A DNA stretch of 64,000 nucleotides from Patescibacteria group bacterium (GTDB taxonomy: Bacteria > Patescibacteriota > Patescibacteriia > Magasanikbacterales > GWA2-37-8), in the NCBI GenBank assembly GCA_028688375.1, contig JAQTYG010000001.1, forward strand, positions 7,793 to 71,792, written 5' to 3'. Below the pieces are notes generated by a model, which was given only the letters and a program-made list of their open reading frames with translations, was not told the origin of the DNA and ran no database searches. Positions 53,028 through 54,468 of the stretch are shown in pieces (position 1 is the stretch's first letter; the number at the start of each line of letters is the position of its first letter). Both the position numbers and the translations under genes were made by a program.

Positions 53028-53099
53028 CTCGCCCCCCGCCAGCGCGCGTCTCGGGAGGTTGGACACATGTCCGGCCTCCCTATTTTTTTAAATTAAAAA

Positions 53100-53125
53100 A
53101 ATAAAACCGCCGATGAGGCGGTATT
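53100..53125. terminator. bidirectional terminator hairpin
   Basis: CCGCCGATGAGGCGG flanked by A-run and T-run. Confidence 0.55.
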
Positions 53126-53147
53126 ATTTTGTGACCCGGCTGGGATT
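53124..53147. repeat. 24-bp direct repeat copy A of the tRNA-Lys 3' end
   Basis: TATTTTGTGACCCGGCTGGGATTC, identical to 53331-53354. Confidence 0.75.
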
Positions 53148-53337
53148 CTGCTTCGGCTCAAATTTTCTTCCGAAAATTTGGCCTAGCCACCGCCTTCCGC
53201 CCAAGGCGGACAGGCGCGGTAACGTCAGCGGAGTTTATCCGCCTCTGGCGGAGCGTCCGAATCCCAACGCGAGCAAAACTATTTGCTCGCTGCCAGGTCA
53301 AAAATAAAAACAGCCCCAAAGGGCAGTTTTTATTTTG

Positions 53338-53410
<73 letters not shown>

Positions 53411-53448
53411 CCTCACTCAGAAATTTTATACAAAATTTCTGAGTGAGG
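53411..53448. other. perfect 17-bp hairpin abutting the tRNA-Lys 5' end
   Basis: CCTCACTCAGAAATTTT-ATACA-AAATTTCTGAGTGAGG. Confidence 0.6.
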
Positions 53449-53483
53449 GGCCGGGCCCACACGCTTGCGTGTGAGGGGTTTGG

Positions 53484-53741
53484 TCATTTTTTTATACAAT
53501 TTTTTATTCGTTCTTTTAATTTCACTAACGCTTGCGCGTGTTTCTTTAATTGCCACTCTCTTTCTTTGGCATCATATTCCGACGCGTATGCTTCATAATA
53601 TATCAGATCAAAAGGTTTTTTGTGTTTAGTATATTCACTTTCTCCAGCGTTGTGTTCGGCAAATCGTTTGCGTAAATCTCCGGTATAACCAACGTAAGTG
53701 CTTTTGTCTACTTTGCTCTGTAGCACATAAACATAATACAT
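53484..53741 (-). CDS. GIY-YIG nuclease-domain small protein (UPF0213-like)
   Basis: YYVYVLQS...YVGYTGDLRKRFAEHN GIY-YIG motif. 85 aa. Confidence 0.65.
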   Translation of the reverse strand: MYYVYVLQSKVDKSTYVGYTGDLRKRFAEHNAGESEYTKHKKPFDLIYYEAYASEYDAKEREWQLKKHAQALVKLKERIKNCIKK

Positions 53742-53841
53742 AAGGATTTCAAGTGAGGGGCGGGCCTGTTCACAATAGACATTTCACTCCGCAAATGATA
53801 CACTATATTTGTAAAAAAATCAAGAGGAGGAACCAAAACAG

Positions 53842-54468
53842 GTGGATAAAACCGTAATTTTTAATGTATTCGCCCCTATGTTAGACAAAAAACATTTTTC
53901 CGCCATCCGCGCCATTTTGCTCAATTACGCCGAGAAAAGACGCGAGATTATCAAGTTAGCGGGGGACGCCCAACAACGCGCTAAAAAGGCCATTTTTGCC
54001 CTTCAGCGCGATGATAAACAGGGCGCCGAGGAGCAATTCCGGGAATCTCTGGCCCGACTGAAAGAGACCGGGGCAGTAGCCAGTTCCGACGAGCGTTTGA
54101 CCGGCGAGGGTTCTTATCGCGCCGCGCTGGAAGAGTACGTGGAAGCCATACTTTTCAACCAGTGTTTGTCCGGTGAAAAAATCGGCGCCATCGCCGACCT
54201 GAACATCGACCCCGACATTTACATCGGCGGTTTATGCGACGTACCCGGCGAGCTCTATCGCTACGCCATCAAATCAGCCACCGAGAAAAAATTTGACCGG
54301 GTCAAAGAATGTTACCAAATCGCCGAAGAAATCATCACCGAATTGGTGGATATGGATTTAACCGGCTACAACCGCCAAAAATTTGATCAAGCCAAACAGG
54401 CCCTGCAAAAATTAGAGCAGGTCGTGTACGAAGTGAGCATGAAAAGACAGAATTCAATAGATCAATAA
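53842..54468 (+). CDS. translin-family protein (GTG start)
   Basis: All-helical, with DIYIGGLCDVPGELYRYAI resembling the translin YLxGxADLTGELMRLAI motif. GTG start 11 nt after GAGGAGG. Confidence 0.45.
   Translation: MDKTVIFNVFAPMLDKKHFSAIRAILLNYAEKRREIIKLAGDAQQRAKKAIFALQRDDKQGAEEQFRESLARLKETGAVASSDERLTGEGSYRAALEEYVEAILFNQCLSGEKIGAIADLNIDPDIYIGGLCDVPGELYRYAIKSATEKKFDRVKECYQIAEEIITELVDMDLTGYNRQKFDQAKQALQKLEQVVYEVSMKRQNSIDQ

Follow-up and report, generated by a model that had tools for sequence, protein, structure and literature searches.

We analysed a window of 64,000 nt from a member of the Patescibacteria (assembly GCA_028688375.1, contig JAQTYG010000001.1, positions 7,793–71,792 of the forward strand), in which the genes for tRNA-Lys(UUU) and tRNA-Pro(CGG) are each followed by a folded element that we name X. 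X is a conserved, covarying element linked to tRNA genes, and apparently constitutes an uncatalogued element family among Patescibacteria (the candidate phyla radiation, CPR).

X at the tRNA-Lys and tRNA-Pro loci

On the tRNA strand, the tRNA-Lys locus runs from the tRNA through a terminator-like spacer, the 5′ strand of helix P1, a hairpin, an arm, the core, and a 3′ module to a second terminator. Its features, in window coordinates, are:

53338–53410, minus strand: tRNA-Lys(UUU) (ARAGORN; Rfam tRNA model, 65.5 bits), with T loop UCCGAAU and C at position 55
53330–53354, minus strand: repeat copy 1, tRNA nt 57–73 plus 8 nt of trailer, GAAUCCCAGCCGGGUCACAAAAUAA
53301–53336, minus strand: spacer between tRNA-Lys and X, an A-tract, GC hairpin, and U-tract; terminator-like, found as an inverted repeat
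53293–53299, minus strand: P1 5′ strand GACCUGG, 7-bp partner of acceptor 3′ strand CCGGGUC (including one A-U replacement and one G.U)
53269–53290, minus strand: family hairpin GCGAGCAAA-UAGU-UUUGCUCGC, from the fold and family covariation
53255–53267, minus strand: arm UUGGGAUUCGGAC, reverse complement of tRNA-Lys nt 53–65, an inverted repeat
53149–53254, minus strand: X core of the Lys copy (~105 nt), from the fold and the covariance model (120 bits)
53124–53148, minus strand: repeat copy 2, the 3′ module of X, with tRNA nt 57–73 at 53132–53148 plus 7–8 nt of trailer
53095–53122, minus strand: hairpin ACCGCCUCAUCGGCGGU and U-run after X, resembling an intrinsic terminator

The first-pass annotation of this DNA had reported a direct repeat of the tRNA-Lys 3′ end, and the repeat is real: 53125–53148 equals 53331–53354 over exactly 24 nt (25 by recount; GAATCCCAGCCGGGTCACAAAATAA on the tRNA strand), and the 17 nt ascribed to the tRNA are indeed its positions 57–73. 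The repeat reaches 54 nt at 78% identity. The 183-bp insert that it brackets is one copy of X. Within the 3′ module, tRNA nt 57–73 read GAAUCCCAGCCGGGUCA. The Lys core contains the equivalents of helices P3 and P4 (a divergent variant with CCGCC..GGCGG hairpins), followed by GGUGGCUAG and helix P5 (AAAUUUUC-GGAA-GAAAAUUU), and ends in ..GCCGAAGCA. The arm places GGAC opposite the unusual G53-U54-C55-C56 of tRNA-Lys. In the fold of the full transcript, the spacer forms the tip of a long helix that joins repeat copy 1 and the X arms.

The second copy of X in the window follows tRNA-Pro(CGG):

37949–38022, minus strand: tRNA-Pro(CGG) (ARAGORN, Rfam)
38042–38115, minus strand: tRNA-Pro(GGG), upstream of tRNA-Pro(CGG) and without X
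37739–37912, minus strand: second copy of X (covariance model, 138.7 bits)
37904–37912, minus strand: P1 5′ strand of the Pro copy
37880–37901, minus strand: hairpin of the Pro copy
37866–37877, minus strand: arm of the Pro copy, AAGAACUUGAAC
37776–37865, minus strand: core of the Pro copy
37677–37749, minus strand: downstream 73-nt repeat copy, 99% identical to 37887–37959

The order of parts is that of the Lys locus, with a separate acceptor complement (AGGGGUG) and T-loop complement (ACUUGAAC). A 19-nt GC palindrome (37750–37768) splits the Pro 3′ module into CAAGUCC (37769–37775) and UGUCACCCCGA (37739–37749). The downstream repeat holds the tRNA 3′ end and terminator together with the P1 5′ strand and the hairpin's first half, and thus represents a partial second unit.

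Alignment of the two segments supports the earlier proposal that the inserts behind tRNA-Lys and tRNA-Pro(CGG) are homologous. Within the 64-kb window, GGCYTAGCCACCGCCT occurs only at 37806 and 53180 (0.03 matches expected by chance), and the 22-mer GCGAGCAAAACTATTTGCTCGC only at 37880 and 53269 (0.00 expected). A covariance model from other genomes scores 120 bits at 53129–53302 and 139 bits at 37755–37913, both on the minus strand. The shared motifs are not generic tRNA terminator features: tRNA-Gly(CCC) and tRNA-Pro(GGG) in the window lack X, as do syntenic tRNA-Lys genes elsewhere.

A covarying family with tRNA-tailored ends

Copies of X were collected from GTDB species representatives with the exact hairpin 20-mer, from metagenome contigs with a pattern of the core, and with a covariance model trained on 15 copies, which recovered additional copies lacking the exact hairpin. 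The 20-mer is found at 20 places in the GTDB representatives, mostly in Patescibacteria (Magasanikbacteria, Saccharibacteria, and others), with one Verrucomicrobiae genome and one contig labelled Gammaproteobacteria; the core pattern matched 101 metagenome contigs. The family comprises 106 distinct copies of ~160 nt from genomes and metagenomes, and a larger variant is present in one Verrucomicrobiae genome. A tRNA gene lies on the same strand within 150 nt upstream in 87 of the 106 copies, 13 copies have none, and 6 are limited by contig ends. The copies follow 16 tRNA isotypes. The first-pass suggestion of a small element family targeting tRNA genes therefore stands as to one family tied specifically to tRNA 3′ ends, one that may be mobile as DNA.

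Rfam returned no family for X at gathering thresholds across the whole window, nor at E values up to 10 at the two loci, where only the genuine tRNAs and noise were found. Neither the exact hairpin nor the core pattern matched IMG/VR viral contigs (0 matches), and blastn with a typical X copy gave no match among GenBank phages and PLSDB plasmids. The element was not found described in the literature on structured or tRNA-like RNAs of CPR/Patescibacteria.

In the following, L-numbers (e.g., L122) label individual loci. The copies L011, L014, and L016 come from Saccharibacteria. The contig labelled Gammaproteobacteria (L008, CAZUFD010000001.1) carries a CPR-type MurG–tRNA-Lys–tRNA-Val synteny and a truncated X, and is probably mis-binned or chimeric.

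Read along the tRNA strand, X consists of a spacer, the complement of the acceptor 3′ strand, a hairpin of 9–11 bp, the arm, a three-way-junction core, and a copy of tRNA nt 56–73. Hairpin and core form the conserved scaffold, the core comprising P3, a variable P4, GGUGGCUAG, and a GNRA-capped P5. The RNAalifold consensus has 46 pairs in P1, the hairpin, P2 (T-stem-like), P3, P4, and P5. P3 is formed by CGCC/GGCG, P4 by GCG/CGC and a variable stem, and P5 by GCU../..AGC and an inner stem whose loop is GGAA or GAAA. The core measures ~95 nt across the family and ends in ..GAAGC. Among 74 distinct sequences, changes on both sides occur in 37 of the 46 pairs and 91.4% of cells are paired. The covariation score is 0.481 versus 0.149 in shuffles (0 of 500 reach it) and ~0.07 in slid controls. 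The hairpin stem (helix 2) is 99.7% paired, with double changes in all nine pairs. The search pattern fixed part of the core, and the same helices covary in a set selected by the hairpin only. Folded singly, the Lys copy reaches –92.8 kcal/mol (z –8.3) and the Pro copy –96.7 kcal/mol (z –5.8) relative to shuffled sequences, and the opposite strand of both copies folds slightly weaker. On the tRNA strand, the internal helices contain more G.U than A.C, at a tally of about 45 to 13. This excess, together with the GNRA loop, suggests that the tRNA strand is functional and points to an RNA, and is also compatible with folded single-stranded DNA (ssDNA).

Both ends of X are tailored to the neighboring tRNA. 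The median length of the 3′ repeat shared with the tRNA is 19 nt; its first nucleotide is nt 56 in 46 of 87 copies and lies between nt 55 and 59 in 58 of them. The 3′ module includes CCA where the gene encodes it and otherwise a few nucleotides of trailer; the template of the repeats was therefore DNA or a precursor and not the mature tRNA. The arm is the reverse complement of tRNA nt 53–64 and takes two forms. Perfect-match arms (ATTCGAAC, ACTTGAAC, AGTCGAAC, AATCGAAC, and ATTTGAAC) each follow the T loop of their own tRNA, and the second form has GA facing G57-A58 (..GAGAAC). The final four arm nucleotides match G53–C56: the arm has GGAC in 4/4 tRNA-Lys genes with a GUCC T loop and GAAC with the 79 GUUC genes. 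Because GAAGC precedes C56 in the 3′ copy of X, that copy lacks nt 53–55. The duplex between arm and tRNA is stronger than that between arm and own copy in 49 of 50 copies (mean –16.2 versus –11.9 kcal/mol, a difference of ~4 kcal/mol). The three to four extra arm nucleotides (GAAC or GGAC) match only the genuine tRNA G53–C56, which suggests that X can swap to the tRNA's own 3′ third. When tRNA-Lys and X are folded as one complete transcript, the energy minimum is this swapped state, in which tRNA nt 53–73 pair with the X arms across the terminator and the 5′ acceptor strand of the tRNA pairs with the second copy.

The P1 5′ strand is complementary to acceptor nt 66–72. P1 is clear in the window copies and in most copies whose spacer measures 21–60 nt (mean helix 5.9 bp), and absent where the hairpin abuts the tRNA. 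As its two ends pair, X would close on a mimic of the acceptor and T stem of the tRNA it follows, the scaffold taking the position of the T loop. The repeat around the insert had been likened to a target-site duplication. The repeat itself holds; its downstream copy, which usually starts at nt 56 and pairs with a tailored internal arm, is better described as a built-in structural module of X.

The spacers fall into two classes, one with a terminator-like hairpin and one with the purine motif GAAGUGAAUGAGGA. A terminator-like hairpin separates tRNA and X in 30 of the 38 copies with a 20–70-nt spacer, and a terminator-like site follows X in 41 of 89 copies, compared to 3 in shuffles.

Turnover of X and candidate explanations

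X copies behave like a recombining selfish repeat, with presence and absence at the same locus, truncation, nesting, and shuffling of modules. The cores do not group by isotype: cores ~95% identical are found behind different isotypes (e.g., Leu-UAG in L029 and Ser-GGA in L043). Genome CAWJAS01 contains two types of P4 and two types of P5 in all four combinations, which suggests recombination among copies. The conserved MurG-MiaB-...-tRNA-Lys-translin locus of four genomes has X in two of them (L122, L123) and lacks it in the other two (L124, L125). Truncated copies (L008, L001), nested or partial second units (the window Pro copy, L017, L002), and orphan copies (L013, L041, L054, and others) also occur.

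The two tRNA-Lys loci without X carry duplications of their own. L124 (2480–2640, minus strand) has the tRNA 3′ end repeated over ~52 nt, with its junction at a microhomology, AGCCGG, that is also present in a small open reading frame (ORF). L125 (2540–2800, minus strand) has a 75-nt repeat from nt 56 around an AT-rich insert of 100 nt, unrelated or degenerate, which retains the arm-like UUUGGUGAGAACC and no hairpin. In L049, the upstream flank and 5′ half of the L092 copy are joined to the 3′ half and flank of the Leu copy of L005, with the switch point inside the conserved CGCGAGGCGGTGGCTAGCCCGAG; such a join reflects either natural recombination or a chimera created when the metagenome was assembled across the repeat. 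In L095 (1223–3696), ~2.4 kb lie between tRNA-Lys and a complete X, which matches this tRNA in its 3′ module. This 2.4-kb stretch contains short ORFs only, none with a Pfam match. At 115 nt past the tRNA there is a stray piece of an arm (GCGAUUGGGAUUCGGAC), and the native tRNA flank (AUGGAAUCUCGAAUC...) recurs ~65 nt after X. We considered L008 as a cargo-bearing version of X and rejected it, as that copy is truncated.

Short, genome-specific GC palindromes are inserted at varied sites in X copies (window 37750–37768 and 53197–53209; P5 of L002; the 3′ module of L123; L034, L064, and L100); one further insertion is within a tRNA 5′ fragment. The window has CCCGCCywrGGCGGG, for example, CAWJAS01 has TCCCAAAGGGATCCCTTTGGGA, and CCTGCCTGCCGGCAGGCAGG is found elsewhere. 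Such palindromes may represent expansion segments or the insertion of tiny hairpins.

Two adjacent 8-kb stretches (L010 and L015) of a Verrucomicrobiae contig (CAWIWQ010000001.1, 192–208 kb) form an array of small cassettes encoding RhuM, HNH, DUF6088-AbiEii, CN-hydrolase, peptide deformylase, and an IS3 transposase. Every cassette is bordered by the tRNA 3′ fragment TCTCTCCACCTCCA, usually after AAGTTCTGAACGCA. The same array contains tandem X-like units devoid of ORFs, with the hairpin GCAAGGCAA-UAGU-UUGCCUUGC, and one of these units carries a nested insert of ~100 nt with the exact CPR hairpin in reverse orientation.

Judged from sequence, we tentatively favor a reading in which X is a structured RNA that mimics a tRNA and rides on tRNA transcription units as a selfish passenger with recombining copies. 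X would be transcribed from the tRNA promoter, either by co-transcription or by terminator read-through. The enzymes of tRNA processing would recognize the mimic of acceptor and T stem and trim the ends of X, which would persist on these essential transcription units, its copies trading modules through recombination. Several observations weigh against this reading. Terminator-like hairpins upstream of X should limit its co-transcription, and no convincing promoter was found for X. The lack of P1 in copies whose hairpin abuts the tRNA means that the acceptor mimic is not universal. Covariation alone cannot separate an RNA from folded ssDNA, and the exact identity of 3′ module and tRNA, often into the trailer, suits a DNA-level duplication at least equally well. 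For an RNA, the terminators ahead of X and the repeats that match the trailer are the hardest points to account for. No model considered explains how new tRNA-specific ends arise, with arm, P1, and 3′ module re-tailored jointly around a constant core.

A more elaborate proposal, which we regard as unlikely, makes X a class of programmable, tRNA-addressed RNAs. A scaffold would carry two guides, for nt 53–64 and nt 66–72, shut by the internal copy of the target, and by way of a 3–4-nt toehold (GAAC:GUUC) the genuine tRNA 3′ third, or the tRNA gene, would displace that copy. The swap would then direct insertion or homing into the T loop with a trans-acting enzyme, or serve to sense, sequester, or replace damaged tRNA 3′ ends.

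The main rival to the passenger RNA is a non-autonomous DNA mobile element, such as a miniature inverted-repeat transposable element (MITE), a palindrome-associated transposable element (PATE), or a miniature integrative cassette, moved in trans to the T loop or 3′ end of tRNA genes; we hold it to be somewhat doubtful. The moving enzyme could be of the HUH/IS200-IS605 type acting on folded ssDNA, a small GIY-YIG nuclease, or a Xer-like recombinase. It would recognize the hairpin and arms and be guided by them, and the replacement 3′ end would keep the tRNA alive. Such an element would account for the direct repeat around every intact copy, whose left border is fixed at nt 56 and whose right border varies (18–73 nt), giving ~1.1–1.4 'units', and for the universal GTTC directly before the repeat with its complement GAAC at the arm end. 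The presence/absence polymorphism, orphans, and truncations fit it, as do near-identical cores behind different tRNAs and the exact 22-mer hairpin common to CPR and Verrucomicrobiae. In the latter, tandem units occur and the same tRNA 3′ fragment borders the RhuM, HNH, and AbiE cassettes. A candidate link to an enzyme is given by small GIY-YIG genes with duplications of the tRNA 5′ part that flank the same tRNAs. However, no integrase, transposase, Rep, or reverse-transcriptase family recurs among the neighbors of X in an all-against-all clustering of ORFs within 3 kb, which recovered only housekeeping synteny, and the 25 Pfam families found most often in the 150 ORFs closest to X include no recombinase, the flanks consisting of housekeeping genes. 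No tnpA, tnpB, or iscB ORFs were seen in the flanks, and the Rfam HEARO and IS605-orfB motifs had no matches in the window loci. No cargo-bearing or autonomous relative was found, and phages, plasmids, and viruses gave no matches. Several genomes with conserved synteny carry X at the same loci, and the paralogs of one genome have diverged into mosaics instead of being near-identical. Known ssDNA transposases need less than a GNRA-capped three-way junction with variable covarying helices, and retargeting would require a simultaneous change of arm, P1, and 3′ module.

A host-beneficial noncoding RNA (ncRNA) acting on its cognate tRNA, pairing with the 3′ third and offering a spare copy, strikes us as improbable. 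Its proposed roles include folding or quality control, sensing or sequestering of 3′ fragments, protection or repair of T-loop and acceptor damage, and a decoy for tRNA-binding factors. That the arm also covers nt 53–55, which are missing from X's own copy, providing a 'toehold' of ~4 kcal/mol in 49/50, and that it covaries with C55, would suit such a partner, as would a 3′ module that stays identical to the tRNA while cores diverge and the retention of X in very small genomes across CPR classes. Yet many tRNAs and some orthologous loci lack X, decayed and truncated copies occur, terminators precede many copies, there is no known partner protein, and a tRNA that is mature, folded, and modified pairs poorly. 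Repeats of a tRNA 3′ end that begin in the T loop are a classical integrase signature, and this, with the duplications at the L124 and L125 tRNA-Lys loci that lack X, would favor an integration or excision scar at a tRNA attachment site (attB) of the type left by cis-mobilizable elements (CIMEs), or a local tandem duplication of the tRNA 3′ end and terminator. This explanation is very improbable and already contradicted by the evidence: one conserved, covarying sequence of 160 nt serves 16 isotypes whose att cores are unrelated, the internal arms complement each tRNA, the neighborhood yielded no integrase, and both chance and generic terminator features can be dismissed. A fold with such heavy compensatory change is not expected of protein-binding att arms. 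The first-pass idea of recurrent scars from one integrase specificity fails on the same grounds, as the same core lies behind unrelated tRNA 3′ ends, its fold covaries, and no recombinase recurs.

Known systems and neighboring features

X fails at least one tested defining feature of each known family tested, and we rate it as new in architecture. Integrative elements at tRNA genes (prophages, genomic islands, CIMEs) likewise leave the tRNA intact and flank the insert with a repeat of the 3′ segment that starts at the T loop. In contrast to them, X measures ~160 nt, has no integrase in cis or nearby, combines one covarying core with 16 isotypes, and carries arms complementary to its target; the pattern of one att core and tRNA per lineage is not seen, since ~95% identical cores serve different isotypes. 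Dicistrons of tRNA and ncRNA and tRNA-like RNAs (plant tRNA-small nucleolar RNA units cleaved by RNase Z, mascRNA, and the tRNA-like domains of transfer-messenger RNA and YrlA) also place an ncRNA behind, or fused to, a tRNA-type structure. An acceptor-like helix with discriminator, by which tRNA-processing enzymes could set the ends, is present in most X copies with 21–60-nt spacers and absent from those whose hairpin abuts the tRNA. X differs in that this helix copies the neighboring tRNA, the T loop is replaced by a three-way junction of ~95 nt, D and anticodon arms are lacking, and no Rfam model matches.

IS200/IS605-derived PATEs and the TnpB/IscB-associated ωRNAs (reRNAs) resemble X in being small, devoid of ORFs, and strongly folded, with hairpins beside sequences that pair with the cleavage or target site, and in having a scaffold and, after it, a 3′ segment identical to the flanking target DNA. 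However, X has no nearby tnpA, tnpB, or iscB, its 3′ segment is paired instead of free, and its ends are tRNA-specific instead of constant. IS200/IS605 elements insert 3′ of a fixed tetra- or pentanucleotide and make no direct repeat, whereas X has one of at least 18 nt, always preceded by GTTC (nt 53–56). Free-standing homing-endonuclease insertions with a replacement gene end (GIY-YIG in fungal mitochondrial atp6; SegB in the tRNA cluster of phage T4) are selfish, lie in or next to an essential gene, and keep the gene whole by partial duplication, as X does, but X encodes no protein. The arm of X spans the junction (nt 53–56 and 57–64) in the same 5′–3′ order as P10/P1, like the internal guide of a group I intron. 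Unlike such an intron, X has no P3–P9 core, G-binding site, or ωG, its ~95-nt core has three helices, the would-be intron contains a terminator, and the Intron_gpI model gave no match.

Other candidates were tried and rejected. No model for hammerhead, twister, hepatitis delta virus, signal recognition particle, 6S, or RNase P RNA matches, and their junction motifs misfit. Integron attC sites misfit in R′/R″ order and consensus. Tandem interspersed guide RNA (TIGR) arrays are unrelated in size and repeat structure. Reverse transcription primed by tRNA, with the arm resembling a primer-binding site, is at odds with repeats that carry the gene trailer and not CCA. IS91-type targeting of GTTC is suggestive only, as the right junction has no motif and no Rep gene is present.

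If true as described, X is a large class of conserved structured elements missed by standard annotation and found directly 3′ of a considerable fraction of the tRNA genes in a bacterial radiation of tiny genomes. Ends re-tailored to each tRNA around a constant core suggest either templated retargeting or that base pairing to the T loop, T stem, and acceptor strand is strongly selected; to our knowledge, neither has a described precedent. X may offer selfish elements a new, integrase-free route to use tRNA genes, or be a new kind of tRNA-directed RNA and a naturally modular, programmable RNA scaffold. It also bears on the annotation of tRNA genes, on metagenome assembly (chimeric contigs), and on the reading of 'att-like' repeats in CPR genomes. 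Spurious 'conserved hypothetical' ORFs are called over tRNA and X on both strands, such as a 124-aa gene at 2571–2945 of L122, and ORF clusters overlap X in up to 20 loci; this is an annotation artefact that follows from the conservation of the X sequence.

A 24-bp hairpin (96% complementary; window 53404–53455) lies directly upstream of tRNA-Lys. Its 3′ arm includes tRNA nt 1–8, so that the 5′ acceptor strand could be sequestered by upstream sequence.

Small stand-alone GIY-YIG genes of ~85 aa (PF01541, E = 3.5e-19) are located immediately upstream of tRNAs, on the same strand, in the window (53484–53741, minus strand) and in L039, L064, L100 (two copies), L111, L002, and L057. The tRNAs flanked in this way are Lys, Met, Ser (twice), Pro, and Phe. 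In the window, the ORF is bracketed by the 13-nt repeat AGTGAGGGGCnGG (53442–53454 and 53752–53764). In L064 and L111, direct repeats of the tRNA 5′ part enclose it, and the breakpoint of L064 falls in the anticodon loop. The GIY-YIG units look like a second type of selfish insertion with partial tRNA duplication, mirroring X on the 3′ side. The unit of GIY-YIG gene, tRNA-Lys, and X is adjoined by a gene for a translin-family protein (PF01997) that binds RNA or ssDNA (window 53842–54468, plus strand), and the translin–tRNA-Lys synteny is kept in many Magasanikbacteria-like genomes (708 homologs at E ≤ 1e-20).

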